DNA of 64,000 nt, taken from assembly GCA_016719385.1 (NCBI GenBank), contig JADJZA010000003.1, forward strand, positions 4,161 through 68,160, in the 5' to 3' direction. This document shows, piece by piece, positions 1,513 to 49,362 of the stretch. Source of the stretch: Candidatus Neomicrothrix subdominans. GTDB lineage: Bacteria > Actinomycetota > Acidimicrobiia > Acidimicrobiales > Microtrichaceae. The notes beneath the pieces are model-generated. The model had not been told where the DNA came from and ran no database searches. It was given only the letters and a program-made list of their open reading frames with translations. How positions within the stretch are numbered: position 1 is the stretch's first letter; every line of letters begins with the position of its first letter. The position numbers and the translations under genes are program-made.

Positions 1513-1534
1513 TCGGCATTGCAGCGATCCCCGG

Positions 1535-3559: not shown

Positions 3560-3591
3560 GATTTGCCATCGTCGGACTACGAGGAGGGTCA

Positions 3592-4041
3592 GTGGAAGAC
3601 CTCAGCAGAATTTCTGAGTTCGCGGCCACGCGCCACGACGGGGAGCGCTGGTCGAGCAAGGAACTCGAAGGCACCTGGGCGCTCCTTTGGTGGTATCCGA
3701 AGGCCAGCACGCCGGGATGTGCAGCTGAAGGCCGCGCATTTGCCGACCACGCTCCCGAGTTCGACGAGCAGGGTTGTACCGTGTTTGGCCTCTCACTCGA
3801 TACCCCACAGGACAACCGCTCGTTTCGGGACGAGCACGACATGCCATTTGCGCTGCTCTCCGTGGACAACTTGGTTGCCACAGCGTTCGGAGTGCTGAGG
3901 GCGGTCGACTCGGAGCACGCGGAGCGGCGGAGCTTCCTGGTCCGACCGGACGGGTCTGTGGCCAAGGCCTACAACGTGGCGAACCCCGAGGATCACGCAC
4001 AAGACGTGCTCGACGACTTGGACGACCTCCTGGGTGGCTGA
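3592..4041 (+). CDS. bcp: Peroxiredoxin, Bcp/AhpC-TSA family
   Basis: WWYPKASTPGC peroxidatic Cys motif and overall Bcp-like layout. GTG at 3592 chosen because the ORF upstream overlaps the IS1634 end. Confidence 0.7.
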   Translation: MEDLSRISEFAATRHDGERWSSKELEGTWALLWWYPKASTPGCAAEGRAFADHAPEFDEQGCTVFGLSLDTPQDNRSFRDEHDMPFALLSVDNLVATAFGVLRAVDSEHAERRSFLVRPDGSVAKAYNVANPEDHAQDVLDDLDDLLGG

Positions 4042-5320
4042 CTCGATTGCTAGGTCCGCGCCGCCGGCGAACCAAGTCGAACGATTTTGCATCAGCGTTC
4101 TCGACCACATCCTGGTGATGTCGATCAGCGGGACGGGAGCACATGCGAAGCCGACTGCTCACGCCGTTCGATGGCTGATGAACGACTTGCGCGTCGAGGG
4201 CTTCGATGCGACGGAGAGCGCCGGTTGGATTGATCTCGGAGTCTCGGGCGAACCACCGGAGTTCTGCTTGACGAGTTCGGTTGCCCAGACACGAGACGGT
4301 ATCGACGATGTGGAGGAGGCGTGCCGGACGTTGCTCGGCGTCATCGCCCTGCTGCTCCCCGTATGGACAGCGGAGTCCGAGATCGCCGTTCACGCTGGCG
4401 GGATCGAGGCTGACGGACGCGCTCACATCCTTGTCGGACCATCCGGTGCGGGAAAGTCCACCCTCGTGGCAGCTCTGGCAAGCAGGAAAGCGCCGGTGTT
4501 CGGGGATGAGACCGTCCTCTTGGACCTTGACTCGCTTTCGGTGCGGGGCATCGCCCGCCCCATGGTGCTGGAACCCGAATCTGCCGGGTTCATCCCGGAA
4601 CTTCCCAACGCACCAATCGGATCGGCATTTTTGCCCATCTCTGCGGTCACCAGCCCTGCCGAGGCGAGTCCGCTTGGGCACATCTGGTTTCCCCGATTCG
4701 ACTCAGCGCACAGCGGCGCACCGACAATTCGCTCGCTGAAGCCGGGTCAGGCACTTCTTCGATTTGCGCGTGAGTGTGTCAGTGCGGACGTCGTCGAGGA
4801 GCAAGTGCTCTCGCGGCTCCTCGCGCTTCTGGGCTCGGTCCCGTGTAGCGAGATCGTGCACGGAGACGCCGACCTTGCTGCGATCCGGCTACTGGATCTC
4901 GCCCATTCGCTCGTCAACGAGCTACCAGCCGGGGCGCCTTCGGTTGTGCCTATGAGCATCCCCAGGACATCCGAGCCCACTCGACCGAATTGCACTCGCT
5001 TCGCCTTCGCCACCTCGATTTCGGTACTTCTTGTTGGTGACGAGCTCGTGCTCGCTCAACAGTCGACGCGGCAGGTCGTCGTTCTCAACGACGACGCCGC
5101 AAAGCTGATCCAGGGGGCGACGCCCATTTCCGTTGTGCCTGGAACGCCAGCGTCATCGCTCTTGGAGGAACTCGAAACATGCGGCTTTGCTCGCCGGGTG
5201 GCCGAACCAGGTTCTGGGTTGATCAAGCGGCTTGGCTGGCTGCGCATGTGGGCAGGTTGGCCCACACGTTGGCTTCGAAGCCGTCTCAAGGTCGTCAGAC
5301 TCAAAGCCACTGACTCGTAA
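4034..5320 (+). CDS. HprK-like P-loop kinase fused to a C-terminal PqqD-like (RRE-type) domain
   Basis: VHAGGIEADGRAHILVGPSGAGKSTLVAAL..FGDE resembles the HPr kinase C-terminal fold region. The C-terminal LAQQSTRQVVVLNDDAAKLIQG...LLEELETCGF looks PqqD-like. The GTG start overlaps the bcp stop by 8 nt. Confidence 0.6.
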   Translation: MADSIARSAPPANQVERFCISVLDHILVMSISGTGAHAKPTAHAVRWLMNDLRVEGFDATESAGWIDLGVSGEPPEFCLTSSVAQTRDGIDDVEEACRTLLGVIALLLPVWTAESEIAVHAGGIEADGRAHILVGPSGAGKSTLVAALASRKAPVFGDETVLLDLDSLSVRGIARPMVLEPESAGFIPELPNAPIGSAFLPISAVTSPAEASPLGHIWFPRFDSAHSGAPTIRSLKPGQALLRFARECVSADVVEEQVLSRLLALLGSVPCSEIVHGDADLAAIRLLDLAHSLVNELPAGAPSVVPMSIPRTSEPTRPNCTRFAFATSISVLLVGDELVLAQQSTRQVVVLNDDAAKLIQGATPISVVPGTPASSLLEELETCGFARRVAEPGSGLIKRLGWLRMWAGWPTRWLRSRLKVVRLKATDS

Positions 5321-5354
5321 TCGTGCTCAGCACGGCCCGGCCAGAACACGGTCC

Positions 5355-6359
5355 CTACCAACGGAGTGCATTCGAGTCGGAGATGTGCGCCACCGAAGTG
5401 ACGGTTCCCCGGCGGGTGGCAGCTACTGCCGCTTCGACGACCTGGTGACCATCGTTTCGTAGGTCGTTGCCGAGGAAGCCGTAGAGGGCCACCCTCCATG
5501 CGAGCCAGCCGGGCGACACGCGCAACCGCGATCCGGTCTCGACCACGATGTCCGATATCGGCAGGGACGAACCTCCGTTTGGGTCGGTCAGTGACCCGGC
5601 CTCGCCGTCCACAAGGGCGAGCTCGTCAAACGCCGCCGGTACCCCATTGCGGTCAGCCAGGAACGGCAGCGCTTCGGGTTCCACCAATGTGACACGGCCC
5701 ATTCGAACGATCGGCACCAAGCGAAGACCGATTCCGCGGAATTGGTCGGAGCGAGCAAGGGTCATGCGACCTAACTGACGATTCAAAGCCGCCAGCACCA
5801 GGGGCCTGTCTCCTACCGCCAGCGGTTGAGCGCGTTCATTCCACAATGCCGGCTGCGGGGAGCCGAATCGTTCGAGAGCGAGTCGTTCGGTGAGAACAAA
5901 TCGGACGCTCTCGCCGAGTGGCAGATTCGGGTCCGGTCCCTGGGGAAGAACCGCAGCCAACGCGTCCGCTCCGTCGCGCGTATCGCACAGAACGGACATG
6001 TTGAGATCGCCCACGCGTACCGAAACCGTGTGAACAGCCCCGAGAAACACCGCCTGGGTAAGGGGCGTCACCAGGGTCGCCGGGGGGCGGTAACGATCCG
6101 CTGGCTGCGGGGTGGCAACCACGCTTCCGAGCTGACCGGCCACCAGGGTGACGATCGCCATGGCGCGTTCCGCAGGAACGCCCCCGGTCGTCATCGCAGC
6201 TGCCGCGGCGCCGATCTCCCCATCCGTTCGCTCCAGCTCGTCCGCGGCCCGGAGTTGCAATGGGCCATAGAGGATCGGGAGCGGAAGGCCAGGGTGCCAA
6301 ACGACTGCCTCCGGCCCGAGGTGCGCACACGTGAGCCCGTCGGAGGGTGGCCCAATCAC
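5355..6359 (-). CDS. PqqD-like N-terminal domain protein with a weak kinase-like region that lacks a P-loop
   Basis: N-terminal AHLGPEAVVWHPG...AAADELERTDGEIGAAAAAM resembles PqqD. The GTG at 6359 forms a GTGA overlap with the upstream methyltransferase stop (6356-6358). Similarity to the kinase paralogues is weak and judged by eye. Confidence 0.4.
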   Translation of the reverse strand: MIGPPSDGLTCAHLGPEAVVWHPGLPLPILYGPLQLRAADELERTDGEIGAAAAAMTTGGVPAERAMAIVTLVAGQLGSVVATPQPADRYRPPATLVTPLTQAVFLGAVHTVSVRVGDLNMSVLCDTRDGADALAAVLPQGPDPNLPLGESVRFVLTERLALERFGSPQPALWNERAQPLAVGDRPLVLAALNRQLGRMTLARSDQFRGIGLRLVPIVRMGRVTLVEPEALPFLADRNGVPAAFDELALVDGEAGSLTDPNGGSSLPISDIVVETGSRLRVSPGWLAWRVALYGFLGNDLRNDGHQVVEAAVAATRRGTVTSVAHISDSNALRW

Positions 6360-7388
6360 GTCGGTTTCAGCGCCTCGATCACGATGCCGTCGAGTCGCCA
6401 TTCACGTTGTTTGAGGGGACTGATCCCCGCTCGGACGTTGATGTCGACGAAACCGGCATTGGCGAGGACCTGCCTCCATTCGCCAACCGGAAAGCGAAGG
6501 CACCGCAGCACGGCCAGGCGACTTGGGCCGTCCATGTCGGCCAACGGTCGGTGATCGTCGAGTCCGACGTCTGCAATACACAGTCGCCCACCCGGCCGGA
6601 GCACCCGGCTTGCCTCTGCGAACGCCGAAATATCTGGCAGGAGCAGGCAGAACAGGCCGTTGGCAATCACCCGGTCCATGCAGCGTGAAGCGATCGGGAG
6701 TGACTGTGCCTTCGCCTGGGCAACTCGCGGCGTCCGGCCGGACATGCGGGCCTCCGATGCGAACCGGGCCGCCATCTCGAATGTGAAGTCGATGCCCCAA
6801 CCCAGGGCACCAGCAGACTCCGCGACGGCGAGGTCGAAGCCGGTTCCACAGGCGAGGTCGAGCGCGTTCCCCTTGGGTAACGGGCATCAGCATGAACGGA
6901 TTACCAAGGCCCACGAAGGTCTCGACGACCCCTGGGGGCACGCTGGCCACCAGATCCTCGGGATACCCGCAACGTCGTGCCAACGCTGCGCCCGACTCGA
7001 ACGCTGGCTCCGTCCCCTCGCCGTTGGCCACGCGGGCATGGTGTGCCTGGGTCGGGTGCGCCCGAGTGGCAGCGGGCGGGGCGACGGCGTTGTCCGATGG
7101 ACGCGTCGCCGGGCTGGGCCGTCCGGTCGGCTCGGGGTGAGCGAGGACCCCTCGATACGACCCGACGACGACATCAGCGAGCTTGGGCTCCAACGACGCA
7201 AACATGCCGTGGCTGGGACGCTGGAACAACGAGGCGAGTTCGACGCCCCGGAACGAGTCAGCTTCGCGCTGGCGGGCGGCGAGCTGTTCAAAGTAGTCGT
7301 CCCCTTCTTGCGAAGCGTCCGGGCTGCGAGGGCTCTCCGAAGGTCTGCGGTCCACTCCGAGGTATGTTATCCATCCGTGAGCAGCCAT
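6356..7388 (-). pseudogene. SAM-dependent methyltransferase (ArsM-like), frameshifted or carrying a sequencing error
   Basis: The upstream frame ends CGYPEDLVASVPPGVVETFVGLGNPFMLMPVTQG. A +1 frame continues KGNALDLACGTGFDL...LRPGGRLCIADV (motif I and post-I). The frame change lies in a G-run near 6866-6870. Confidence 0.6.
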
Positions 7389-8573
7389 AAATGGGAAGAC
7401 CTGCTCGGCGCCGAGCCGCTTCGGGTCTCCGACGACCGGGCTTGGCTGAACGTTCCGGGTGGGGCGCTACTGATCGCGGCTCGGCCCCGCCGGCTCGCGT
7501 ACGTTGACGACGTCGGCGCCGAGCTGATTCGACAGCTCTCTTCCGGGGCGGTCCAAGGCCTGGCGCACGATCTGGCCGCAGCCCTCCGGGTGACGCCAGC
7601 CGAGGCCGATGCGTCCATCGGACAGATGGTGGCATCGCTCCACGATGCTGGCCTCGTGAAAGCAGGGCCGTTGTTCGTCGAGGCTTGGGCCGCCAGGGGA
7701 ACGCTCCCGCCAGCGTCCAGGCCGGTGCGCACTCTCAACCCGCCCCTCCCGGTCCTCGGTGACACCCGCGGGCTACTGGCAGGGCCGACCTCAGACAGCG
7801 CCGTGTGCGTGCAGGAGCAGCTCAGGTTCGGGCATCGACTGCCAACCGCAGAGGTGGACTGCAACGGCCTGAAGCTGACCCTCCGATGCTCGGAACCGTT
7901 CGACCCTCTGTTACCCGACCGTGTCGAGAGCAGCGGTGGTCGACCACTACGCCGACGTGAACCCCAGACGACAGCCCACCTGCATCTACTCTCGACGAGT
8001 GCCAGCTCAGACCGGTGGAAGCTCCTCAGCGGCGAAGGACGGTTGATCGGTCAGGGTCGGGACCACCAGGGAGCGTGGCAAGCCCTCGCCTGTGAGCTGG
8101 ACCTCGTCGAGGAGCTGGGCGGGCAACAACCGGCCCCACACTCCTCAGCGAACCTCAGAGTGCTGTCCTGTGCGTCCGGCCCGATGCTGATTCCCGGGAT
8201 CGACGGTGACCGCCTGGTTCGCTTCTCCCGACGCCTAGGCCGCGCTGGCATTTCGGTCGATTGCGGGCATCGTGTGCTCATCAGGAACGCAACCTCGCAG
8301 GAAGGCGTTCCCGGCAACACCCTCGTCCGAACAGGGCCGGATCTGTGGGTTCGACCGGCCGGGATCATCGTGCCGCACCGCCTCCGGAAGGCCATCCCGA
8401 TCGTTGCCGCCCTTGTGGCCTTCGCTGCGATCGACTCGGATTCGGCGGTCGTTCTCGACGTCCTCGTCCGGTTGGTCCGGACGTTCGTCGAGCTGCCCCC
8501 ACTCTTCGTGAACCCGGTCGACGATGACGGAGCCTTCGCTACCGCGATTATCGACAAGCTGGGCCCGGCCTAG
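7377..8573 (+). CDS. PqqD-like N-terminal domain protein with a degenerate HprK-like region
   Basis: LRVSDDRAWLNVPGGALLIAARPRRLAYVDDVGAELIRQL...LHDAGLV is PqqD-like. SGPMLIPGIDGDRLVRFSRRLGRAGISVDCGHRVLI aligns by eye to GQLVLLPAPSGNGKSTLTGAFVAAGWDYLGDEAIGV of 48222..49352, with the P-loop lost. The part of ORF 6660..8573 upstream of 7377 is antisense to the methyltransferase. Confidence 0.5.
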   Translation: MSSHKWEDLLGAEPLRVSDDRAWLNVPGGALLIAARPRRLAYVDDVGAELIRQLSSGAVQGLAHDLAAALRVTPAEADASIGQMVASLHDAGLVKAGPLFVEAWAARGTLPPASRPVRTLNPPLPVLGDTRGLLAGPTSDSAVCVQEQLRFGHRLPTAEVDCNGLKLTLRCSEPFDPLLPDRVESSGGRPLRRREPQTTAHLHLLSTSASSDRWKLLSGEGRLIGQGRDHQGAWQALACELDLVEELGGQQPAPHSSANLRVLSCASGPMLIPGIDGDRLVRFSRRLGRAGISVDCGHRVLIRNATSQEGVPGNTLVRTGPDLWVRPAGIIVPHRLRKAIPIVAALVAFAAIDSDSAVVLDVLVRLVRTFVELPPLFVNPVDDDGAFATAIIDKLGPA

Positions 8574-8619
8574 GCCCTCGTCACAGCCTGGGGCTACCGG
8601 GGTCGCCGTTGCCTGTCGG

Positions 8620-9237
8620 CTACCTGTTCTCGCCGCTGTAGCGGCCACCAGGATTTACTTTCGACTCGGGGGAAAGCCCGAGGGCTGGCCGTCGGTCAAA
8701 CCGGTACTCGGCCTCCGGCCCGTCGCGCTCCACGTAGTGGAGAAATACCTGGAGGTAGTCACCAGCTTCGCGATGCGGGCGGGAATGAGGTATCTCGCGC
8801 CCCTTGACTAGCAGCAGGTCACCCGGGTCAAGCTCGATCCGAACCTTCGCACCGCAAGCGTCTTCCAACTCGAAAGGCCACGGCTCCCCCCAATTCGCTA
8901 GGTGGACGGTGGCGGTGTGCCCGCACGCGTCTCGGTCGCGATGGCGAATCAGCTCGCAAGGCGGACGGTACCACCGCAGATACGAATAGGTCGGCTCTAG
9001 CTCTGTCGCAGCAACTTCACTCAGCGCACCAACAAAACCAGCGCACAACGTGTCGAACGCTGGGTCGCCGTACTTCGCCACCGTGTTGCCGAATGCTGGG
9101 TCGCTGACCAGTTGCCTGCCGGAGTTGAGCGTGTGGGCACACGCAACCAGGAACTGCACCAAACTGGGATCTACTGCGCCCCTCGCCACGACGTAGCCGC
9201 GCTCTCGGTAGCTAGTCGCAGGGTCTGTCCCTCTCAC
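8620..9237 (-). CDS. 2OG-Fe(II) oxygenase-like protein
   Basis: IRHRDRD (HxD) ... DPGDLLLVKGREIPHSRP (distal His) pattern. The GTG start overlaps the upstream stop (GTGA, 9234-9237). Confidence 0.5.
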   Translation of the reverse strand: MRGTDPATSYRERGYVVARGAVDPSLVQFLVACAHTLNSGRQLVSDPAFGNTVAKYGDPAFDTLCAGFVGALSEVAATELEPTYSYLRWYRPPCELIRHRDRDACGHTATVHLANWGEPWPFELEDACGAKVRIELDPGDLLLVKGREIPHSRPHREAGDYLQVFLHYVERDGPEAEYRFDRRPALGLSPESKVNPGGRYSGENR

Positions 9238-9842
9238 CAGCCTGCTCCTGGTTCCTCCGGGGAAGCGAGCCGCCAGGAAGCGTCCCCGACCGGCCCCACG
9301 TACTCAACGCGCAAAACGAGGATGACCGCAGGCGACGTGGACGCGGGTATCCAACGGGAGGAACCTGAAAGCATGACCAACGTGCCCGGCCGCAGTTGCA
9401 TCGAGCCGCTCGATACCTGCCAGTCGCCGGAATCGGGCCAAAGAGATGCATCCAACGCCAGATCGGGTACCTGCGCTATCTCGACGGGGTCCGACCCGGC
9501 GAGCTGGATCACCGCGCACAAGGCACCACCGGAGGAGTAGGCAACTGCTTCCCCGCCCACGACAGTGGTGATGAGGTCGCCCGAGATCCGTGTCAGATCC
9601 GAACCCGACCTCCATTCCACAATGTGTGCAGACGCCTCGGCTACCACATCCTCGATAGCCGCCAAAGGTTCGGCTGGCAACTGGTTGGCTGACCTCCATC
9701 CGGTGGCAGCCTGCAGGTCGATACCCACCAGCAGTTCCGGATCGAAGGTGAAAGTGTGGGCGCTCCTGCCGAACCACCGAAGCTGTTGAACGTCGACAAA
9801 TCCTTGAACCAGGTCGGTCCCGACTGCGAGTTCATCACTCAT
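9234..9842 (-). CDS. Hypothetical protein, possibly cupin-like
   Basis: Coding-like ORF. The ATG at 9842 overlaps the stop of the upstream gene (9835-9837). No motif recognised. Confidence 0.4.
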   Translation of the reverse strand: MSDELAVGTDLVQGFVDVQQLRWFGRSAHTFTFDPELLVGIDLQAATGWRSANQLPAEPLAAIEDVVAEASAHIVEWRSGSDLTRISGDLITTVVGGEAVAYSSGGALCAVIQLAGSDPVEIAQVPDLALDASLWPDSGDWQVSSGSMQLRPGTLVMLSGSSRWIPASTSPAVILVLRVEYVGPVGDASWRLASPEEPGAGW

Positions 9843-10563
9843 CAATGCCCCTTCCGTCGTTCAGAGTCCCGTCAGGCAAGCGACGGGCTGTCACCATCAG
9901 CACACTAGATCCGGGTTGGTCGGTATGGAGCTGCATCGGCAACGCCGCCGGAAGGACGTACCAAAGGTCGGGTCGGAGTTGGGTCTTGACTCCCACCGCG
10001 AGGTCGGTGCGATCGCCCGGGTGCTCGGTGCGGTACTGAAGAACCATCTCGGCCGGGTTTCGCACTTCCAGCTGAACGATCGAATGCTCATCGAGCAGAG
10101 CGAAGACGACCACGGCACTGTTCGGAACCGAAAACCGGGCCGTCGAACCGTCGAGTTGCAAAACCATCCGCTCATTCACCTGCCAGCGAACCTCGGGCAA
10201 CCCGGTGAACGCCGCAAGGTAGTCAGCGAGGCTGACTGCGATTCGGTCGAGAAGCCGCACACGCGATGCCATCGGGGATTCGTCCTCGACCGAACTGCGG
10301 AGCAACGTGGTAGCAACGCCCAGGCGGGCCGACGCCGCTTCCGAGTGGACCGATATCCCGTTGCTGGCGCGAATGAGAGGACGGAGCAGCTCGCCTGTTT
10401 CCTCGGGCAAGCCAGCCACCGCCAATACCGACTCATGGTCGCGGTGCTCGGTAGCACTTCGGAGGCGTTCGGAACCGATGACGTCTCTGGGGATGTTGCG
10501 GCTGGACGTCGGGGTCATAGGGCGGTACGCCTCCTCGTCTGGCTCAAGAAAACGGACTTCCAT
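9835..10563 (-). CDS. Hypothetical protein, possibly cupin-like
   Basis: Coding-like ORF that overlaps the stop of the P4H-like gene (10544). Start ambiguous: ATG 10563 or TTG 10578. Confidence 0.4.
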   Translation of the reverse strand: MEVRFLEPDEEAYRPMTPTSSRNIPRDVIGSERLRSATEHRDHESVLAVAGLPEETGELLRPLIRASNGISVHSEAASARLGVATTLLRSSVEDESPMASRVRLLDRIAVSLADYLAAFTGLPEVRWQVNERMVLQLDGSTARFSVPNSAVVVFALLDEHSIVQLEVRNPAEMVLQYRTEHPGDRTDLAVGVKTQLRPDLWYVLPAALPMQLHTDQPGSSVLMVTARRLPDGTLNDGRGIDE

Positions 10564-11152
10564 GGATCCAGCCGACAAGAACTCGTCGTGTTCCTTGCGT
10601 CACCGGGTGCACCTGGTGCAACAAGAAAGACGGGAATACGATCATCATTCCTTGGTCGACTTGGACGACGTTGCCGGGAAGCATCTCGAGTTCTCCACCG
10701 CGGTACTCATCAGGTTTCGACAGCATGACCACGAAGCTAAGTTTTCGGGTCGACATGGCCCCACCGACGTCCATGTGAGCTGCGAAGTGCCCCTCGTCGT
10801 TGGATGAATACTCCAGGATTCGCGGCAGATCGGATCGGTGAAACCCCTCGAGGCTGAAGTGATACAGCGAAGCATTCAGCTGCGCCAGCCGCTCCAGCAT
10901 CCCAGGGAATAACTCGGTTTGGAGCTGGGAGGTGACCTCGTATTCCACACAGCGGCGCTCCCTGGGGTTGGTCCCGTGGTGGCTGTAGCCGCCGGGAAAC
11001 CCAGGCATAGGGGCACTGGTAGTGACCCTGGCCGGGGTCGGGCGCTCGGCGCATACCCGGTCCACGATGTCCTGGCATCGCTCGCTCGACCAGAGCAGCT
11101 CACGCTGGACGGCGCACAGGTTGGAGTTGGGCTGAATCCCGGTCTGGCTCAT
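10544..11152 (-). CDS. Prolyl 4-hydroxylase-like 2OG-Fe(II) oxygenase
   Basis: HFAAHMD...RKLSFVVMLSKPDEYRGGELEM...GMMIVFPSFLLHQVHPVTQGTRRVLVGWI matches the HxD...H...R signature of the 2OG-FeII_Oxy_3/P4H group. Confidence 0.7.
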   Translation of the reverse strand: MSQTGIQPNSNLCAVQRELLWSSERCQDIVDRVCAERPTPARVTTSAPMPGFPGGYSHHGTNPRERRCVEYEVTSQLQTELFPGMLERLAQLNASLYHFSLEGFHRSDLPRILEYSSNDEGHFAAHMDVGGAMSTRKLSFVVMLSKPDEYRGGELEMLPGNVVQVDQGMMIVFPSFLLHQVHPVTQGTRRVLVGWIHGSPFS

Positions 11153-12033
11153 CAGCGCTCAACCACCAACGGGCTGGAGATGGCACGGCGCCGGACTTCA
11201 GCCCACAGATCGCGCGTCGAGCGTTCGATCTGAAGGCGGAGCCGCCAGCTCAGTTCCGGGCGGGATCGCTCTTTGGCGGGAGCCCACTTGACGTCTGTGC
11301 CGGTCGGACGCTTCGAGTACAACGTGAGTTCGCGCTCGCATTCCGCGGGGTCAGGACGGGGAAGGCCCCACATGGTGGCCAAGGAATCTGCGATGTCCAA
11401 CGGACGATCCACGAGCTGATCGTAGGTCACCACCTTGACCGAGTCGTCCGGCTCGGCGAGAGCAGCCTCGACAGCGCTGGTCCATCGCTCGATCAGAAAT
11501 GAACTGAACCTCGCACGCCCATTCGACGGCTGGTAGGTGCGAACCAAATCAACCCAGGGTGGTGGCTGATAGAGCCAACTTCGGACGGTTGCCGTCGGAG
11601 ACCGCGTGATCAGAACCGAGGGAAGCGACCCGGCGAACGCCGTCCGGATCGTTGGCAACTGGGGGGTACACACGGAGGAGAGCTTCAACACCGCCGGCGC
11701 CTGGGAGGACCGCCACCGCTTGGCCAACCAGCGGACCTGCCCATCGTTGACGGGAACCGGTGCAGGGGATGCCCAAAGGTCAAAGGGGAACGGCGGCTCC
11801 AGTCCGACGATCGATCCCCCCGTTGCCAGCATGCGACAGAGCAGCGTTGAGCCACAACGGGACGTGTGGAAGATCAATGGAGTTCTGGTCGCCCCAGGGA
11901 ACGCTGGCATGTCGCCGATCGGGTCTTCGGCCGCCCCCAACCTGCTGCCATCGACGATGCCGGTTCCATCTGCGCGGGCCATCGAGACCCCTGAAGGCGT
12001 GACCTGCCATGGGAAGGTTGGGTCATCTACCAA
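11152..12033 (-). CDS. Sulfotransferase-like protein
   Basis: IFHTSRCGSTLLCRML resembles the 5'-PSB loop and VLITRSPTATVRSW the 3'-PB motif of PAPS sulfotransferases. The stop overlaps the next start (TGATG at 11150-11154). The TTG start at 12033 is uncertain. Confidence 0.45.
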   Translation of the reverse strand: MVDDPTFPWQVTPSGVSMARADGTGIVDGSRLGAAEDPIGDMPAFPGATRTPLIFHTSRCGSTLLCRMLATGGSIVGLEPPFPFDLWASPAPVPVNDGQVRWLAKRWRSSQAPAVLKLSSVCTPQLPTIRTAFAGSLPSVLITRSPTATVRSWLYQPPPWVDLVRTYQPSNGRARFSSFLIERWTSAVEAALAEPDDSVKVVTYDQLVDRPLDIADSLATMWGLPRPDPAECERELTLYSKRPTGTDVKWAPAKERSRPELSWRLRLQIERSTRDLWAEVRRRAISSPLVVER

Positions 12034-13388
12034 TACCGCGTCTCCGGAGGCGCATCGCCGACGCGTGCATCCGCAATCAGCCCGATAGCAACCAGCTCAT
12101 CGAGCACCTCAGGCGCCCGGGATCGTTCGGCACGAGGAAGCGCCGCGACGAAGTCCCTCCATGCTAGGTAGCGACCGTCTGCGAGCGAAGTCACCAGCTG
12201 GCCAAGGGACTCGGGAAGGTCAAAGACACCACCGTGTGCCGCGATCAAGAATCGGTCGTCGGCGGCTCCATCGACCCACCCGAGACCGAGGCCGAACGAG
12301 CAGGCCACCCAGGGCTCTTGCTCCATCGGGTCGGCAGTGGCACGGAGCAGTGCGATCGGCCCCGCGAAGGGAGGTCTGGATGCACCAAGACGAATCGCCT
12401 GAACGGCGGACTCGAACAAGGTTCCCCCGAGTTCGCCGACAGCAGCGCCGAATGCGTCTGGGTCACCGAGCGAGGGGGTATCCGAGTCCAACGGGCCGTC
12501 GGGATGAAACACAAAGGGCACCCGCATGGCCGGCAGCTGATGGGCGGGCTGTGCCATAGCCTCAAGCACGTCCAGTGGGGACGGCCGAAGAAAGCCAATG
12601 GTCAGGTGAACGGCTAGCGAGTCGGCACAGATGACGTTGTGCCCGATCCCGTGCGGGACGAAAACCCCCTCCCCCACTTTCAGACGGTAGAGGTCTCCGA
12701 CGAGCGGGCCAACCTCGGAGGGGGTGACGGCCCGGTGTGGCGCCGGACCTGATGGTTGATGAAATGACCAGAGTTTCGCCCCCGTGGTCTGTACAACGAT
12801 CACATCGTGATCATCCCAATGTGGGCCAAATCCGCTGGCGGTCCCATCGGCGACATAGGCGTTGATCCGAACGTCCGAATCAGTGACCGTTCGCAGATCG
12901 TCCACCAGACGGCTCCACTTGGGGACGCGGCTATCCACCGAGTTGATGACCAATCCGACGTCAGACCTCACGATGCCAGCCAAGAGCGACGGGTCAAGAG
13001 CCTGGTGCTTTTGGCTCATCACGATCGGTCTGAGGGGGAGATAGTCACCATCCCGGGCCAGCTTGATGGCTGGCGAGTTAGCCGCGATGGCATCGCCGAC
13101 GTTGTTGGCCAGCAGCACTGCGTCCAGCGCATCGTCGGGATCGAGCCAGCTGACGAATTCGGGGTCGCACTCGACGGTGCGCGGGTCGGCGGTCCCCGAC
13201 CGGCGCGCGATCGCGACGAAATCGAAGTCCGGAAAGGCCGCTTGAAGCCGAACCGACGCCGCCCCCCGGGCCCGACCCCGTGCTGCCGCGAGGTCCGCTT
13301 CAAGGCCCTCGGCGGTGGCATCAAGCACCCGGAGGCGGCCGATGTGTTCAGAACCAAGTGTGTTCCACCCAACGTGGAACACACTCAT
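12027..13388 (-). CDS. JmjC / cupin-4 family oxygenase (ribosomal-oxygenase-like protein hydroxylase)
   Basis: NAYVADGTASGFGPHWDDHDVIVVQTTGAKLW...VGEGVFVPHGIGHNVICADSLAVHLTIGF matches the cupin-4 HxD...H core. The ATG at 13388 forms an ATGA overlap with the stop of the upstream gene. Confidence 0.7.
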   Translation of the reverse strand: MSVFHVGWNTLGSEHIGRLRVLDATAEGLEADLAAARGRARGAASVRLQAAFPDFDFVAIARRSGTADPRTVECDPEFVSWLDPDDALDAVLLANNVGDAIAANSPAIKLARDGDYLPLRPIVMSQKHQALDPSLLAGIVRSDVGLVINSVDSRVPKWSRLVDDLRTVTDSDVRINAYVADGTASGFGPHWDDHDVIVVQTTGAKLWSFHQPSGPAPHRAVTPSEVGPLVGDLYRLKVGEGVFVPHGIGHNVICADSLAVHLTIGFLRPSPLDVLEAMAQPAHQLPAMRVPFVFHPDGPLDSDTPSLGDPDAFGAAVGELGGTLFESAVQAIRLGASRPPFAGPIALLRATADPMEQEPWVACSFGLGLGWVDGAADDRFLIAAHGGVFDLPESLGQLVTSLADGRYLAWRDFVAALPRAERSRAPEVLDELVAIGLIADARVGDAPPETRYW

Positions 13389-14029
13389 GTGCTGGTGCAG
13401 GTGACGTGGATGTTGATCGTGGCGGCGTTCGGGAAATCGGTGCAACCGACCCCGGTGGAATTCGGATCAATCGCAATCGTCATCGAGCCCGGGCTCGTCC
13501 AAGTGGTCGGGACCGGCGTGGTCGTGATGAAGTCGCAGATGGGCCCCCCTGGCCCTGATGTGGCGGTCCAGTCGGCGCCGTTGACGGTGCACATCTGGAA
13601 CGGCGGGTCGATGTTGTTGAACGCGATATCGACGTTGAACGGGGAGGATCCGAGCAAGTGATCGTGGACGGTGAAATTGGCGTTGAACGGACCCACCATC
13701 CCGACATAGTTCCCGGTGTTGCTACAGTGAGTGATCCCGAAAAAGTCCATCTGCGACATCCCGGTCACGCAGGTTCCATTGGGCGCATTCGAAACAGCCC
13801 ATGACAGATTGCCGTTGAACGGGCTCGGCGAATAGGTGGCCGCTCCGGCAGCATCCGGTACGAGGGAACCGCCCTCGATCTTGGGCATCGACCACACGAT
13901 CCCGGCAGTGGTTGCGCCCACGGCCGCCTTCCTCAGCATGTCCCGACGCGATTGGCTGCCGTCGCCTGCTTCGGATTCGGATTCGGATTCGGATTCGGCC
14001 TCCAAGCCGGCGTTTTCCGATTCATCCAT
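13385..14029 (-). CDS. Exported protein with a twin-arginine signal preceded by an acidic (SE)n extension; candidate modification substrate
   Basis: MDESENAGLEAESESESESEAGDGSQ-SRRDMLRKAAVGATTAGIVW matches S-R-R-x-F-L-K followed by an h-region. A GAGGGGG Shine-Dalgarno lies 7 nt upstream of the ATG at 14029. The mature part is N/T/P/G-rich with 6 Cys. Confidence 0.6.
   Translation of the reverse strand: MDESENAGLEAESESESESEAGDGSQSRRDMLRKAAVGATTAGIVWSMPKIEGGSLVPDAAGAATYSPSPFNGNLSWAVSNAPNGTCVTGMSQMDFFGITHCSNTGNYVGMVGPFNANFTVHDHLLGSSPFNVDIAFNNIDPPFQMCTVNGADWTATSGPGGPICDFITTTPVPTTWTSPGSMTIAIDPNSTGVGCTDFPNAATINIHVTCTST
13970..13998 (-). repeat. Hexanucleotide repeat (gaatcc)n encoding ESESESESE
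   Basis: The + strand reads ttcggattcggattcggattcggattcgg. Confidence 0.85.
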
Positions 14030-14076
14030 ACTGGAGCCCCCTCGATCGCCAACAGTGAAGGCGCTACAATACGGCA

Positions 14077-15285
14077 GTGAACTCGTCCGGCGCAAGACCA
14101 TTCAGCGCTGGTCCAGAGCTGGTTACGCTGAGCCACGGCGACAAACACTTGATGTTCGGGGCAAACCCGAGGGCATCCTTGGCCACCGATGACCTGGGCC
14201 GCGACATCGCCCGTGCCTTGGTCGGCTGCGACACCGACGCTGCGACTTCGCTTGCTATGAGTCACGGAGCCGGTCAGGAAGCAGCAGGTGTCGTATCAGA
14301 GTTCCAGCAAGTTCTGGAAGCCATCGAAGCCCTCCCGCAGTTGGAGACTGAGGGGTCCGAGTATCAGCCAGGTACCCACATCCGATATCGGCTATTCGAG
14401 AGCGGACAACGGATCTTTGCTGGTTCTGGATTCCCGCTAGCGATCGGATACGGCGCGCGAGGGAGTTGCCTATGGAACCGCCTCGACCTCGACGACCCCG
14501 GAGCACTGCTCATCATAGGCCCACCTCCGCAGCCTCTGAGGATTCGGCTAGCCGGAGTACCTTGGCGCCACGAACTCATCGCAGCCTTGGGCGACCTGCC
14601 GTGGGAATTGGCAGACCACGATCCTGATGATGGCTTTTGGAAGGCCCAACTGCACCTCGTCGGCGGAGTAGTTGGCAGCACCAGAGCCCACCTGTTCTCC
14701 GTGACCGGGCACCTGCTGGGTACCAGCCGGACGGCCGACCCGTTTGTAGCATCGATCCGAGGGTTTCTCGACACCTCCAGGCTCGTCGCTCATCAAGGTC
14801 TCCTAACAATGTATGCGGGGCTGGTTGAGCGCCAATCGGGTCTGATGCTTCTTCCATGGCAAGAGTTCAGCCGACTGTTTCGCTTCGAGCGGCGGCTTCA
14901 ACGGCACGGATGGTCGCTGCTGCGTTCGCAGCGAGTGCTCTTAAGTCAGGACGGTTCGGAGATGTATCGACCTCCGTCGAGCAACGGAGCGCCTGTTGGG
15001 TCTCCTGAACGAGGTCGGCCAACGGCGATTCTCGTCCCAAACCGATTGTCACTCAATGGCCGGGCATTGGTCGCTGCACACTTCGTTCAGCTTCTGGACC
15101 GCGACCGACGCCCCACACCAGCAGCCCGGGCGAAGGTGGCGGAGCTGATGCTCGGGGTCGATCACGTTGGTGTCGACACCGACAGCGATGCGCAACTGGT
15201 GGACGCTGTCGTGGAGATCGGTCGCCAGCTCGATTCGGCATCCTCGGGCTCACTTGCGCAACGCGGTTTTCTCAGTTCCGAGTAG
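14077..15285 (+). CDS. PqqD-like N-terminal domain protein with a degenerate HprK-like region
   Basis: ELVTLSHGDKHLMFGANPRASLATDDLGRDIARALVG is PqqD-like. QSGLMLLPWQEFSRLFRFERRLQRHGWSLLRSQRVLL aligns by eye to the P-loop region of the intact kinases but lacks GxxGxGKS. Confidence 0.45.
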   Translation: MNSSGARPFSAGPELVTLSHGDKHLMFGANPRASLATDDLGRDIARALVGCDTDAATSLAMSHGAGQEAAGVVSEFQQVLEAIEALPQLETEGSEYQPGTHIRYRLFESGQRIFAGSGFPLAIGYGARGSCLWNRLDLDDPGALLIIGPPPQPLRIRLAGVPWRHELIAALGDLPWELADHDPDDGFWKAQLHLVGGVVGSTRAHLFSVTGHLLGTSRTADPFVASIRGFLDTSRLVAHQGLLTMYAGLVERQSGLMLLPWQEFSRLFRFERRLQRHGWSLLRSQRVLLSQDGSEMYRPPSSNGAPVGSPERGRPTAILVPNRLSLNGRALVAAHFVQLLDRDRRPTPAARAKVAELMLGVDHVGVDTDSDAQLVDAVVEIGRQLDSASSGSLAQRGFLSSE

Positions 15286-15313
15286 GCATCGTACCTCCCC
15301 TCTCGCTTCCTTT

Positions 15314-15430
15314 CAGGTGTTATGCCGAATGCGGCATAACACCTGTTATGCCGAGGCCGTGATTATGCCGAATGGCGGGGTGGATGCGTTGGTGGGGGCG
15401 GCGGACGGGGTGACGCGTTCGGCATAATCA
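15314..15430 (-). repeat. Terminal repeat block of a third RIT element (remnant)
   Basis: 32-bp palindrome caggtgttatgccg-aatg-cggcataacacctg (15314-15345) plus ttatgccga/tcggcataa repeats. The layout matches the ends of the other two RITs. It follows the ritC-like stop at 15428-15430. Confidence 0.55.
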
Positions 15431-16519: not shown

Positions 16520-17752
16520 ATGAACATGCCGTCACCGACTCGTGTGCGTGTCGCGGGCCCGCTTCAGCCCTATGCGGTTGGATTCCGCCAGGAGTTGTCC
16601 CGGTTGGGATACTCGTCGAGCCCGGCTGCGGGCCATCTTCAGTTGATGGAGCATCTGAGCTGCTGGCTGGACGATCACAATCGGGGCCCGGAGGGTCTGA
16701 CAGCGGCCCGGGTTGACGAGTTCTTGGATCATCGTCGCTCGCAGGGCCGGTTGCACCAACAACTCAGCCTGGGCGGGCTGAGCCCGCTGCTGAGTTATCT
16801 TCGTGAGGTGGGGGTGGTGCCGCCACCGGCGTTGCTGGCGTCGACTGGTCCGTTCTCGCAACTGATGGAGGAGTTCGTCGGCTACTTGCGTGATGAGCGT
16901 GGCCTGGCTGAGAACACGGTGGGCAACTACCGGTGCGTCGCCGAGCTGTTCTTGTCAACAACTCGGCTGTGTGGTTCAGGTGAGGGGCGCTCGACCGTGT
17001 CCGATCTTCGTGCTGGCGATGTGATCGGGTTCATGGTGAGCGAGGCGAATAGTCGTAGTGCCGGGTCGCTCAGCAACGTCGCGACCGGACTCCGGGCGTT
17101 CCTGAGGTTCTTGCACCTACAGGGCTTCATGGCCACGTGTTTGGCTACGGCGGTGCCTGCGGCTACCGGTTGGCGTGATGGGGGTCTGTTGTGTCGCGCT
17201 GTCGAATCAGCACAGGTCGCCCAACTCTTGGCGAGCTGTGACCGGCGGACCGGTTCGGGGCGTCGCGACTTCGCGATCCTGACTGTGCTGGCCCGGTTGG
17301 GGTTGCGGGCAGGCGAGGTGGCTGCGCTCGGTGTTGATGACATCGACTGGCGGGCGGGTGAGCTTGTCGTGACCGGCAAGGGCAATCGACGCGATCGGCT
17401 GCCGTTGCCCGTTGACGTGGGACAGGCCATCGCCGACTACTGCGCGCGCGGACGTCGCCACGGTGATTGTCGCAGTCTGTTCCTCCACGCAAGGGGCCCT
17501 TATGTCGGGGTCTCGGGGAGCGCGGTGAGGGAGGTGGTCGCTCGGGCATGTGACCGTGTCGGGGTGCCCCGCATCGGAGCGCATCGGCTGCGACACGCTG
17601 CTGCCACCTCGATGCGCCGGGCCGGTGCGCCACTCTTCGAGATCGCCCAGGTGCTCCGGCATCGTCACTTGCCGACGACCGCGCACTACGCCAGAGACGA
17701 CGTTGCCGCCTTGGCTGTCGTCGCTCGCGGGTGGCTCGGTGGTGACGCATGA
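16520..17752 (+). CDS. ritA: Tyrosine recombinase, RIT subunit A
   Basis: 410 aa with C-terminal HRLRHAAATSM...LRHRHLPTTAHYA (R..HxxR..Y catalytic pattern). ATGA overlap with the next gene. Confidence 0.7.
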   Translation: MNMPSPTRVRVAGPLQPYAVGFRQELSRLGYSSSPAAGHLQLMEHLSCWLDDHNRGPEGLTAARVDEFLDHRRSQGRLHQQLSLGGLSPLLSYLREVGVVPPPALLASTGPFSQLMEEFVGYLRDERGLAENTVGNYRCVAELFLSTTRLCGSGEGRSTVSDLRAGDVIGFMVSEANSRSAGSLSNVATGLRAFLRFLHLQGFMATCLATAVPAATGWRDGGLLCRAVESAQVAQLLASCDRRTGSGRRDFAILTVLARLGLRAGEVAALGVDDIDWRAGELVVTGKGNRRDRLPLPVDVGQAIADYCARGRRHGDCRSLFLHARGPYVGVSGSAVREVVARACDRVGVPRIGAHRLRHAAATSMRRAGAPLFEIAQVLRHRHLPTTAHYARDDVAALAVVARGWLGGDA

Positions 17753-18675
17753 ACTCGCTCTACCAACAAGTTGAGGACTATCTGAGCGTGCGTCGAGCGT
17801 TGGGTTTCAAGCTGGTCGCGCACGGCAACCTGCTGGTCGACTTTGTTGACCAGCTGGACCAGACCGGGACATCGGCACTGACCATCGAGGCCGCTTTGGC
17901 CTGGGCAACCAAACCCCAAGGAGTGCAGCCCTACCGTTGGAAACAACGCCTCACGGTGATCCGCGGGTTCGCCATCTACCTGAACGCACTGGACCCCGCC
18001 ACAGAGGTGCCGCCAGCCGATCTGCTGGCCTACCGGCGTCAACGCCCCACGCCCTACCTGTTCTCCGATGCTGACATCGCGGCGTTGTTGGCTGCCGCCG
18101 GCGACCTCGGCAACGCGCCGCGTGCGGCGACTTACCGCACCTTGTTCGGGCTGATCGCGGCGACGGGGATGCGTTGCGGTGAAGCTCTGGCCCTCGACCG
18201 CGACGATGTCGATCTTGATACCGGTGTGCTCACCATCAGGCTGACGAAGTTCAACAAATCCCGTCGGGTTCCGTTGCATCGCTCCACGCTCGCCGCTGTT
18301 CGCGGCCACCTCGACGAGCGAGACCGGCTCTATCCCCGGCCTGTGCAGCCGAGCTTGTTCGTCTCCACGACCGGCACCAGACTCGCTGACCGGCGTGTAC
18401 GGGCGGTCTTCGCCGACCTCGTCGACCAGTCCGGCCTCAAACCGCGTTTCGGGTCCGGCCGCCCGACGATTCACAGCCTGAGACATAGTTTCGCGGTCGC
18501 CACTCTCCTCGATTGGTATCGCGACGGGGCCGATGTCGCCTCCAGGATGCCGTTGCTGTCCGCTTACCTCGGCCATGTGAGCCCGGCATCGACCTACTGG
18601 TATTTGCAGGCCACACCCGAGCTGCTTTCACTCGCGGCCCAAAGGCTCGAAGCGCCTGTGGGGGTGTGTTCATGA
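17749..18675 (+). CDS. ritB: Tyrosine recombinase, RIT subunit B
   Basis: 308 aa with GMRCGEALAL, HSLRHSFA and LGHVSPASTYWY motifs. Its stop overlaps the ritC start. Confidence 0.7.
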   Translation: MNSLYQQVEDYLSVRRALGFKLVAHGNLLVDFVDQLDQTGTSALTIEAALAWATKPQGVQPYRWKQRLTVIRGFAIYLNALDPATEVPPADLLAYRRQRPTPYLFSDADIAALLAAAGDLGNAPRAATYRTLFGLIAATGMRCGEALALDRDDVDLDTGVLTIRLTKFNKSRRVPLHRSTLAAVRGHLDERDRLYPRPVQPSLFVSTTGTRLADRRVRAVFADLVDQSGLKPRFGSGRPTIHSLRHSFAVATLLDWYRDGADVASRMPLLSAYLGHVSPASTYWYLQATPELLSLAAQRLEAPVGVCS

Positions 18676-19659: not shown

Positions 19660-19752
19660 TTATGTCGAGCAGACCCGCCACGATCACCGGTGATACCAGG
19701 GCGAACCCAACAGCCGAGACCGCTACTCGACATAATCGTCTACTCGACATAA
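19658..19752 (-). repeat. RIT1 right terminal inverted repeat
   Basis: Reverse complement matches 16362-16456. Overlaps the ritC stop codon. Confidence 0.85.
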
Positions 19753-34260: not shown

Positions 34261-34277
34261 CACATCGTCGACCGCCG

Positions 34278-49352: not shown

Positions 49353-49362
49353 CCGTTCGAGG

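Follow-up and report, generated by a model that had tools for sequence, protein, structure and literature searches.

The genome of the sludge bacterium Ca. Microthrix subdominans carries an accessory island that spans about 11.7 kb (positions 3592-15285 of the window, that is, of the whole 64-kb stretch of DNA that was analysed), with mobile elements on its flanks and a seven-gene operon at its core. The island is likely to produce a ribosomally synthesised, post-translationally modified and exported protein, with RiPP-like logic extended to a folded domain. The candidate substrate is the product of the first gene, g1. In current annotation, all seven genes of the operon carry hypothetical or generic labels.

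The operon occupies positions 8620-14029 of the minus strand. Direct reading of the sequence and the ORF calls place seven ORFs where the first-pass annotation had put them, and gene calling carried out independently on over ten metagenome contigs recovered the same genes. Of the six start-on-stop overlaps described in that annotation, four are certain: ATGA at the g1/g2 junction (13388-13385), TGATG with a 1-nt overlap at g3/g4 (11154-11150), an 8-nt overlap at g5/g6 (9835-9842), and GTGA at g6/g7 (9237-9234). The remaining two are probable and depend on the choice of the start codon. The TAG stop of g2 (12029-12027) and the TTG start of g3 at 12033 give a 7-nt overlap. This start is favoured by a GGAG 8 nt upstream of it and by the alignment of residues 1-17 with the ortholog from locus L008; some gene callers prefer ATG at 11982, leaving a gap of 44 nt after g2. 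For g5, ATG at 10563 yields a 20-nt overlap with g4 and a protein of 242 aa, and ATG at 10518, preceded by GAGGAGG, yields a 25-nt gap and 227 aa; the gene callers are divided. A consensus scan of the minus strand found no promoter-like or terminator-like sites inside the operon, which is weak evidence. Tight gene overlaps are frequent in operons of high-GC actinobacteria, and thus the packing by itself is unremarkable. What goes beyond chance is the retention of the gene set in other loci.

Profile search produced 155 relatives of g1, which belong to an unannotated family of at least 155 representative clusters. They share the RR signal with a longer conserved N-terminal motif, a beta-sandwich core that is variable and rich in Asn, Gly and Cys, the motif GIDPPF(Q/N)xC and a C-terminal cysteine. 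For family members matching along most of their length, contexts of at least 5 kb were recovered at seven loci, one of them in the window. The precursor gene directly adjoins a JmjC gene in all of them, and thus in six of the six other loci, with a start/stop overlap kept in five loci; the first-pass annotation had tied its scheme to co-occurrence of the genes elsewhere, and this co-occurrence was found. Genes similar to g4 and g7, and genes for PqqD-like and HprK-like proteins, sulfotransferases and methyltransferases, are observed near precursors of this family. In both L007 and L008, a JmjC_2 gene follows the g1 homolog with a 4-nt overlap, and homologs of g4, g7 and a 402-aa protein of the island are present; L008 additionally contains homologs of g3 and of the methyltransferase. 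Remote members of the family, in L040, L046, L047 and L048, are accompanied by the same module. L040 has two precursors, two JmjC genes and one JmjC-like gene, three g4-like genes and one g7-like gene, together with a fusion of sulfotransferase, methyltransferase and PqqD, a separate PqqD protein and a pair of HprK-like proteins. The gene order in L047 is a divergent PqqD-like gene, precursor, JmjC (10-nt overlap), and then g7-like and g4-like genes. In L048, JmjC and the precursor overlap by 4 nt and are followed by PqqD-like and HprK-like genes. Conservation of the set holds for g1, g2, g3, g4 and g7 and does not extend to g5 and g6.

The enzymatic assignments made in the first-pass annotation were upheld, at different levels of support. 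g2 (12027-13388, minus strand; 453 aa) is a JmjC/cupin-4 Fe(II)/2OG oxygenase, matching Pfam JmjC_2 with 55 bits (cutoff 22, E 6e-15). Its triad H190-D192...H250 is conserved in the alignment of relatives. Profile matches in PDB are NO66 (2e-17), MINA53 (3e-12), YxbC and YcfD, and the nearest solved relatives, NO66, MINA53 and YcfD, are all hydroxylases of protein side chains. g4 (10544-11152, minus strand; 202 aa) is a PKHD/P4H-type Fe(II)/2OG oxygenase: it matches 2OG-FeII_Oxy_3 with 56 bits (cutoff 27, E 7.6e-15) and the NCBIfam PRK05467 models, and its PDB matches include the PKHD hydroxylases 3dkq and PiuC and the prolyl 4-hydroxylase 6iuq. g7 (8620-9237, minus strand; 205 aa) is a third oxygenase of the Fe(II)/2OG type, with the triad H99-D101...H151 invariant in three orthologs; these match 2OG-FeII_Oxy_2 weakly over the same region (E 0.17, 0.027, 0.0007). 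g7 also matches phrog_2954 (E 4.5e-33) and has orthologs in L007, L008, L040, L046 and L047. The g3 protein (11152-12033, minus strand; 293 aa) is sulfotransferase-like judging by the conserved PAPS-loop motif R59-C-G-S-T63 and sub-threshold matches to Sulfotransfer_3 and Stf0. Its L008 ortholog matches Sulfotransfer_3, Sulfotransfer_1 and Stf0, and a gene of L046 listed with Sulfotransfer_3 is a weak relative (BLASTP E 3e-7, 26% identity). The two proteins left as unknowns in the first-pass annotation are orphans, lineage-specific additions to the operon. For g5 (9835-10563, minus strand), nothing was found in Pfam, NCBIfam, PADLOC or PHROGs, and counterparts are absent from L007, L008, L040, L046 and L047. 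For g6 (9234-9842, minus strand; 202 aa), the same searches gave a single, chance-level match to GYF_2.

The g1 gene (13385-14029, minus strand; 214 aa) is preceded by the ribosome-binding site GAGGGGG and supported by family alignments. Its product consists of a Tat-type signal or leader (approximately residues 1-70), disordered in the AF2 model, and an all-beta core of 144 residues with six cysteines, which is covered by no family of Pfam or NCBIfam. The model was built from an alignment of 41 sequences and has a mean pLDDT of 73, with 75-93 for most of the core. The twin-arginine motif S-R-R-D-M-L-R-K (residues 27-34; 13928-13951, minus strand) is followed by the h-region AAVGATTAGIVWSM, which is mildly hydrophobic (mean Kyte-Doolittle hydropathy 1.29). 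R28 and R29 are conserved in at least 90% of the 41 family members. The TAT-signal models TIGR01409 and TIGR02811 each match 5 of 26 relatives, and one relative is named a Tat-signal protein by NCBI. These features argue for the Tat signal proposed by the first-pass annotation.

It is doubtful that this N-terminus is mainly a RiPP-style leader for PqqD-like proteins, removed by a protease, with export or release independent of Tat. RRE proteins usually bind leaders, g1 of the window scores below the cutoffs of the TAT-signal models, and the conserved block runs about 30 residues past a normal Tat signal (W-x-x-P-x-I-E-G-L-S-x-x-P-D-Y-A-x-A-A). However, g1 has the consensus S/T-R-R-x-(F/L/M)-L-K with its h-region, several relatives are recognised by TIGR01409, and neither a transporter nor a leader protease was found among the gene calls of the island. 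Moreover, protein P0124 shares with the g1 family only this N-terminal region. Since P0124 resides in an unrelated genomic context, the motif is not exclusive to the module, fitting a general export signal.

The operon is flanked by conserved partners that the first-pass annotation had not mentioned, namely PqqD-like proteins, an HprK-like P-loop protein and a SAM-dependent methyltransferase; the wider g1 family and a hypervariable patch in g1 were also absent from it. The divergent gene at 14077-15285 (plus strand) encodes the 402-aa PqqD-like (RRE-type) protein with orthologs in L007 and L008. It is aligned by hhalign (95.7%) with a 472-aa protein of L040 whose PqqD domain is bona fide (37 bits). 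The convergent gene at 7377-8573 (plus strand) encodes its 398-aa paralog (92%), whose N-terminal PqqD-like domain is borderline (E 1e-4, 23.0 bits, Pfam cutoff 23.4; lasso_PqqD_Strm weak). The methyltransferase gene (6356-7355, minus strand; Methyltransf_11/25/31) is frameshifted in the window, where 2 nt near 6862 are deleted in comparison with eight contigs, and encodes 333 aa in other contigs; homologs are found in L008, L046 and, within the fusion, L040. Its stop is overlapped by the start of a gene for a 334-aa protein (5355-6359, minus strand), which had no family match in profile searches and is possibly a distant, poorly aligned relative of the 402/398-aa family. The 428-aa product of the gene at 4034-5320 (plus strand) is an HprK-related P-loop protein, a putative kinase (NCBIfam TIGR04352 HprK_rel_A, E 1.2e-17, 63.9 bits, equivalog cutoff 200 bits), with homologs in L040, L043, L046 (fused to PqqD/ScmC) and L048. 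The start of this gene is overlapped by a gene for a 149-aa AhpC/TSA-type redoxin (3592-4041, plus strand; PF00578 and PF08534), not seen in the related loci.

We infer that g1 is the substrate, and propose the following order of steps. The g1 protein would be translated in the cytoplasm, and its conserved N-terminal region, made up of the twin-arginine signal and the motif W-x-x-P-x-(I/V)-E-G...P-D-Y-A-x-A-A, would be recognised by the 402- and 398-aa PqqD-like proteins. Side chains of the core would be hydroxylated by g2, g4 and g7; g3, the methyltransferase and the HprK-like protein would then add sulfate, methyl and possibly phosphate. The finished beta-sandwich protein, possibly already folded, would exit via the Tat pathway. 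Modification would have to precede export, because all proposed cofactors (2OG/Fe, PAPS, SAM, ATP) are cytoplasmic.

It is unlikely that the enzymes instead serve the synthesis or tailoring of a small molecule, for example an amino-acid derivative carrying hydroxyl, sulfate or methyl groups, with g1 as an exported accessory, for example a binding protein or receptor. In favour of this reading, 2OG oxygenases, sulfotransferases and methyltransferases frequently tailor small molecules, some enzymes of the PKHD type, to which g4 belongs, have substrates that are unclear or are not proteins, and g1 is predicted to be a folded domain and its conservation exceeds that of the enzymes. On the other hand, no scaffold-building enzyme (NRPS, PKS, ATP-grasp, terpene synthase etc.) was found in the seven loci, the solved relatives nearest to g2 are protein hydroxylases throughout, the precursor-JmjC overlap is retained, and the PqqD/RRE and HprK-like partners, typical of peptide-modifying systems (matches to TIGR04352, ScmC/ScmD and lasso PqqD), indicate a peptide substrate.

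Several observations count against modification of g1 in a RiPP-like manner. Identity of g1 to its relatives in L007 and L008 is 46-47%, compared to about 30% for the enzymes, which is unusual for a RiPP substrate. The core of approximately 145 residues, predicted to fold by itself, is far above the usual size of RiPP cores, and its fold may block access of the enzymes. The borderline PqqD and sub-threshold sulfotransferase matches, the score of g1 below the TAT-signal cutoffs, the presence of the leader motif in P0124 outside the module and the frameshift of the methyltransferase in the MAG also belong here.

Ten contigs from ten samples are identical over positions 8500-15400 (6.9 kb) apart from a 137-bp patch in g1 (13608-13744, minus strand). 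The 15 protein variants differ only within this patch, with the exception of one P160S. The variable codons are 96-100, 107, 116, 118 and 141. All changes are non-synonymous, many are transversions, adenine is among the coding-strand alleles at most variable positions, and N116 occurs in three states (AAC, GAC, CAC). Exported targets of diversity-generating retroelements (DGR) with Tat signals exist, e.g. the Tat-lipoprotein LdtA of Legionella, and have similar short patches of extreme, adenine-biased variation; however, it is very improbable that a DGR writes the g1 patch in trans, with the variable loop being also chemically modified, as no template repeat was found in the 64 kb even with mismatches allowed at adenines, the only reverse transcriptase of the window is that of a group II intron (QGGILSP/YADD motifs, maturase domain), none was seen in L007, L008, L040, L046 and L047, about 20 other adenines of the patch are invariant, and the variation is sparse, includes 3-nt indels and is located in the middle of the gene rather than at its C-terminal end.

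Parts of the proposed modification-then-export pathway resemble known systems. JmjC-type Fe/2OG oxygenases adjacent to RiPP precursor genes, with RRE partners and tailoring hydroxylation, are known from the curacozole (CzlI, PMC11575548) and biphenomycin (BpmG/PbsQ, PMC12257519) pathways. However, both pathways have short peptide precursors with classical leaders and class-defining cyclodehydratases, MNIO or rSAM enzymes, whereas the island combines a beta-sandwich core of about 145 residues with a Tat signal as the leader and contains no known class-defining enzyme. In bufferins and other MNIO-modified RiPPs with signal peptides, a general-secretion signal replaces the classical leader, some precursors are protein-sized, and modification has to precede export (PMC11626156, PMC12452194). 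Bufferins rely on Sec signals and on an MNIO enzyme paired with a DUF2063 protein, and their heterocycles derive from Cys, unlike the Tat-type signal, three families of 2OG oxygenases and sulfotransferase-like, methyltransferase and HprK-like proteins of the island. Pairing of a PqqD-like domain with an HprK-like P-loop protein is also observed in the HprK-related kinase A/PqqD system (TIGR04352/TIGR04353) and in SynChlorMet (ScmC/ScmD), and clusters of this kind, with kinase and sulfotransferase tailoring of lasso peptides, also contain sulfotransferases (PMC8498205). However, the island proteins score well under the equivalog cutoffs (64 vs 200 bits), and the island encodes neither a lasso cyclase or protease nor a radical SAM enzyme or a nucleotidyltransferase. 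Finally, the ribosomal oxygenases NO66, MINA53 and YcfD/RoxA, which hydroxylate protein side chains, are the best sequence matches of g2 among solved structures and share its HxD...H triad, but those are stand-alone genes acting on ribosomal proteins, whereas g2 is start/stop-coupled to the gene of a secreted protein.

As the association of the small secreted protein with these enzymes is found again in distant relatives, the g1 family probably represents previously undescribed proteins that are chemically modified in the cell and then exported.

All seven minus-strand open reading frames proposed in the first-pass annotation, named here g1 to g7, are present at exactly the coordinates it gave (8620-14029). 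Their products match exactly the proteins MBK9296536-MBK9296542 of a Candidatus Microthrix (Neomicrothrix) subdominans MAG, and all are annotated as hypothetical or in generic terms. The start-on-stop overlap claimed for every junction is certain at four of the six, namely g1/g2 (ATGA, 13388-13385), g3/g4 (TGATG, 11154-11150), g5/g6 (8 nt, 9835-9842) and g6/g7 (GTGA, 9237-9234), and depends on the choice of start at the other two. At g2/g3, the g2 stop codon TAG (12029-12027) and a TTG start of g3 at 12033 overlap by 7 nt. This TTG is preferred over the ATG at 11982, because GGAG lies 8 nt upstream and the 17 residues gained align with the ortholog in locus L008. The g5 start differs between gene callers, being either 10563 (242 aa, 20-nt overlap with g4) or 10518 (227 aa, 25-nt gap). 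No promoter-like or terminator-like sites were observed on the coding strand within the block, which is weak evidence in an actinobacterium. Because genes often overlap in high-GC operons, the packing by itself is unexceptional.

The Tat-type signal ascribed to g1, the candidate precursor, was recovered: SRRDMLRK is followed by a mildly hydrophobic h-region AAVGATTAGIVWSM (hydropathy 1.29), and the arginine pair is conserved at 90% or more in the family alignment. Among the TAT-signal HMMs, g1 itself yields a weak match to formate_TAT only (E 0.006). Such models are the only ones that match its relatives, each in 5 of 26; the best of the TIGR01409 matches has E 4e-5. The core of the family is covered by no Pfam or NCBIfam model. 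Upstream of the arginine pair, the acidic n-region contains (Glu-Ser)x4 encoded by (GAATCC)x4 at 13973-13996, constant in the 15 variants of g1 found in metagenomes.

Word-indexed searches gave two g1 homologs only (46-47% identity), and for the family of the neighbouring 402-aa protein almost nothing but the protein itself. The g1 family was exposed only by a full HMMER profile search, which retrieved 155 relatives at E <= 1e-3. Among the 149 matches in which features were scored, RR is located close to the N-terminus in 142, the extended motif RR...[W/F]xxPx[I/L/V]xG is seen in 135, P-D-Y-A-x-A in 117, and a cysteine within the last 13 residues in 124. In the family alignments A8 and A9, the N-terminal ~60 residues form a conserved block, and the core varies strongly except for GIDPPFxxC and the C-terminal cysteine. 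Gly, Thr, Ser and Asn are abundant in the core, where GIDPPF(Q/N)xC is frequent. At the sequence level, the family consists of a conserved leader and a variable core, as in RiPP precursor families. The AF2 model of g1 made from a 41-sequence alignment has a mean pLDDT of 73. Its N-terminal ~70 residues are disordered save the signal helix, and residues 71-214 form an all-beta core of ~145 residues, mostly at pLDDT 75-93, predicted to be a beta-sandwich. An earlier model from 4 sequences was discarded (pLDDT 46). Foldseek comparison of the g1 model with PDB and BFVD produced no confident relative (best TM ~0.3-0.4); the best matches, WSSV VP26/VP28 at TM about 0.3-0.4, are regarded as non-informative.

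The assignment of g2 to the JmjC oxygenases proved correct: it matches Pfam JmjC_2 (E 6e-15, 55.3 bits with a cutoff of 22), and the iron triad HxD...H, here H190-x-D192...H250, is invariant in the alignment. The closest matches in the PDB are protein hydroxylases, namely NO66, MINA53, a Rhodothermus cupin-4 protein, YxbC and YcfD. Within the public assembly collection searched, 198 blocks contain the g2 protein. A scan with the g2-type alignment found 26 loci that share nothing but the JmjC gene, and thus g2-like enzymes occur also outside the module. Four or five tandem g2-like paralogs occupy 10.8 kb of an Aquihabitans sp. MAG (DATAGR010000226.1, positions 1-10854), among them an 896-aa ORF that contains two JmjC domains; a g1-like gene was not detected there.

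The g4 product, described earlier as P4H-like, matches 2OG-FeII_Oxy_3 (E 7.6e-15, 56.1 bits with a cutoff of 27), and PKHD hydroxylases as well as a prolyl 4-hydroxylase are among its PDB matches. Since it stays below the NCBIfam equivalog cutoffs, g4 is not a YbiX/PiuC ortholog. No family scores above threshold for g7. Its identification as a third oxygenase is borne out by the triad H99-x-D101...H151, invariant in three orthologs, and by the same weak match to 2OG-FeII_Oxy_2 in all three. It also matches phrog_2954 (E 4.5e-33) and, more weakly, phrog_3531, both labelled "ferrochelatase" in PHROGs; as the HxD...H triad is conserved, this label is probably wrong for the g7 family. The matches suggest that phages carry g7-type oxygenases under mislabelled PHROGs.

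The g3 product is called sulfotransferase-like on weaker grounds than the other enzymes. The R-C-G-S-T loop, the counterpart of the PAPS-binding 5'-PSB loop, is conserved, and the domain matches, to Sulfotransfer_3 and Stf0, are sub-threshold (15.6 and 14.2 bits; cutoffs 27 and 22). The L008 ortholog (21.7 bits) matches three sulfotransferase families, and BLAST links g3 weakly to a gene of L046 that is listed with Pfam Sulfotransfer_3 (E 3e-7, 26% identity). PDB sequence and profile searches with g3, g7 and the 402-aa family returned chance matches only. The orphans g5 and g6 have no match in Pfam, NCBIfam, PADLOC or PHROGs, nor, by hhalign, among all other families of the related loci, and are unlike each other. 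PADLOC assigned no defence system.

The operon is flanked by further candidate partners. The divergent gene at 14077-15285 encodes the 402-aa protein, and its convergent paralog at 7377-8573 a 398-aa protein whose match to PqqD, the domain type of RiPP recognition elements, is just below the cutoff (23.0 bits vs 23.4). The PqqD domain is clear in proteins of loci L040 and L046, and hhalign connects the 402-aa protein (95.7%) to a 472-aa L040 protein that itself has PqqD at 37 bits. A methyltransferase gene (6356-7355), start/stop-coupled to the gene of a 334-aa protein, has a 2-nt deletion near 6862 relative to all eight other contigs and is thus frameshifted in this MAG, being either a pseudogene or an assembly error. 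The 428-aa product of 4034-5320, a gene coupled to a redoxin gene, is an HprK-related P-loop protein. It matches TIGR04352 (HprK-related kinase A) at E 1.2e-17 and 63.9 bits, and is a homolog rather than a member of that family, since the equivalog cutoff is 200 bits. At larger distances on the minus strand, 34 kb from the operon, there is a second fusion of PqqD (E 6e-9) with an HprK-like domain (48222-49415), and near position 33 kb of the window a weaker HprK-like ORF (32981-34618). These ORFs may belong to further peptide-modification loci.

A transposase borders the unit of operon and flanking partner genes on one side. On the other, an ISL3 fragment is accompanied by three tandem tyrosine recombinases (about 16520-19700) and by a group II intron with its reverse transcriptase (19790-21322). 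No relative was found when the g1 alignment was run against 185,579 species-representative genomes of GTDB, and a metagenome scan recovered a single fragment; the absence from species representatives fits a strain-variable accessory island. The insertion-sequence content around it is polymorphic between samples: the element at 1540-3553 is absent from L005, and in L003 the stretch downstream of g7, before the 398-aa gene is reached, contains an additional DDE_Tnp_1 element.

Whether the gene set co-occurs elsewhere is a test of the modify-then-export scheme of the first-pass annotation, which had named a lack of co-occurrence among its refuting conditions. A g1-like gene adjoins a JmjC gene in the window and in loci L007, L008, L040, L046, L047 and L048. 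In L007 and L008, the two homologs at 46-47% identity each overlap the JmjC gene that follows by 4 nt. The genes g4, g7 and that of the 402-aa protein have homologs in both loci, and in L008 so do g3 and the methyltransferase gene. L047 has the same layout as the window: a divergent PqqD-like gene, the precursor, JmjC (10-nt overlap), g7-like and g4-like genes. In L048, JmjC overlaps the precursor by 4 nt, and PqqD-like and HprK-like genes follow. L046 contains g7-like, JmjC, PqqD/ScmC fusion, Sulfotransfer_3, precursor, JmjC, PqqD, methyltransferase and two g4-like genes. L040 has two precursors, two JmjC and one JmjC-like gene, three g4-like and one g7-like gene, a sulfotransferase-methyltransferase-PqqD fusion, the 472-aa PqqD protein and two HprK-like genes. 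The L040 precursors (3456-4061 and 10001-10579) are divergent, about 30% identical, and the JmjC and PKHD-type genes are duplicated, which suggests that each precursor has its own enzyme set. Comparison of the seven loci therefore gives a conserved set of precursor, JmjC, PqqD-like, g4-type and g7-type genes, to which genes for a sulfotransferase, a methyltransferase or an HprK-like protein are frequently added. The one exception among the contexts of g1 relatives is P0124 (locus L045, 10001-10573, NCBI MEM7091965.1, an Actinomycetota MAG). It resembles g1 in the extended Tat-type N-terminus only (RR...VWSAPKIEGLSLRPEYAAAAS) and has unrelated neighbours, and thus this motif is used beyond the modification module.

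These data are most economically read as an extension of RiPP-like logic to a protein. Cytoplasmic enzymes using Fe/2OG, PAPS, SAM and ATP would modify g1 under the guidance of PqqD-like proteins, and the Tat pathway would then export the matured, possibly folded product. Comparative genomics supports the modify-then-export scheme of the first-pass annotation; that g1 is the substrate, which of its residues would be modified, whether export depends on Tat and what the product does are inferences. The description that fits best is a variant of the precursor-plus-tailoring-enzyme (RiPP-like) type of system. As in RiPP clusters, the precursor gene lies beside modifying enzymes across lineages. 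However, a RiPP product is usually a peptide, with a core under about 10 kDa and unstructured before modification, whereas the g1 core of ~145 residues exceeds peptide size and is predicted to be folded, and the system contains no known class-defining enzyme. There are precedents for JmjC hydroxylases encoded beside RiPP precursors (PMC11575548, PMC12257519) and for RiPP precursors with signal peptides, some of them protein-sized (PMC11626156, PMC12452194). Literature searches found no description of a Tat-signal RiPP precursor with this enzyme set.

Over 8500-15400 (6.9 kb), ten contigs, each from a different sample, have the sequence of the window save within 13608-13744 (g1 codons 96-141); the sole difference outside this segment occurs in a contig of 1.8x coverage. 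In the 15 variants, differences are limited to residues 96-100, 107, 116, 118 and 141, and one P160S. Codons 96-100 occur as TTTTTCGGGATCACT (FFGIT), TTTTTCGGGAAT (FFGN), TTTTTCGGGCAT (FFGH), GTTTTCGGGCAT (VFGH), TTTTTTTTGGGGGAT (FFLGD), TTTTATTTGGGGGAT (FYLGD) and TTTATTTTGGGGGAT (FILGD). The further variable sites are N107D, N116D, N118D and D141A, with N116H in the low-coverage fragment L009, and the same N-to-D change recurs on several distinct 96-100 haplotypes. The changes in the ten contigs are non-synonymous without exception; L009 has one synonymous change in addition. The patch coincides with the most indel-rich region of the family alignment and maps, in the AF2 model, to a beta-hairpin formed by strands 93-96 and 99-102.

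The cause of this variation may be targeted mutagenesis or strong diversifying selection. Most changes involve a coding-strand adenine and many are transversions. The pattern is similar to what a diversity-generating retroelement (DGR) produces. However, many adenines in the patch never vary and some of the changes are 3-nt indels; no template repeat was found in the 64-kb window, adenine-tolerant matching included, and the only reverse transcriptase there is of the group II intron type. This argues against a DGR acting locally on g1, and the patch does not qualify as a DGR target.

Taken jointly, these observations allow a reading that we consider tentative and rather unlikely as a whole. The g1 family would be a new class of ribosomally made, enzyme-decorated proteins with the Tat signal as leader. 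In the Ca. Microthrix member, the exposed hairpin 96-118 would be actively diversified in wastewater populations worldwide, via targeted mutagenesis or extreme diversifying selection, and would serve as a specificity loop (e.g. in phage, receptor or kin recognition) and also be the site or neighbour of the modifications.

If the modify-then-export scheme is right, precursor-plus-tailoring-enzyme logic would extend beyond peptides to a folded protein domain exported via Tat, and the use of Tat would be explained, because export has to follow cytoplasmic maturation. It would also add to the catalogue an unannotated family whose sequence clusters, at least 155 in number, are all "hypothetical" in databases, and provide a candidate substrate for three uncharacterised 2OG-oxygenase families, a divergent sulfotransferase and an HprK-like kinase. 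With zero divergence in its surroundings, the patch makes an unusually clear natural case for studies of targeted diversification. As the host is among the principal causes of bulking and foaming in sludge, a secreted or surface protein that is modified and has a fast-changing loop would be of practical interest; the loop could serve strain tracking or bear on phage interactions.
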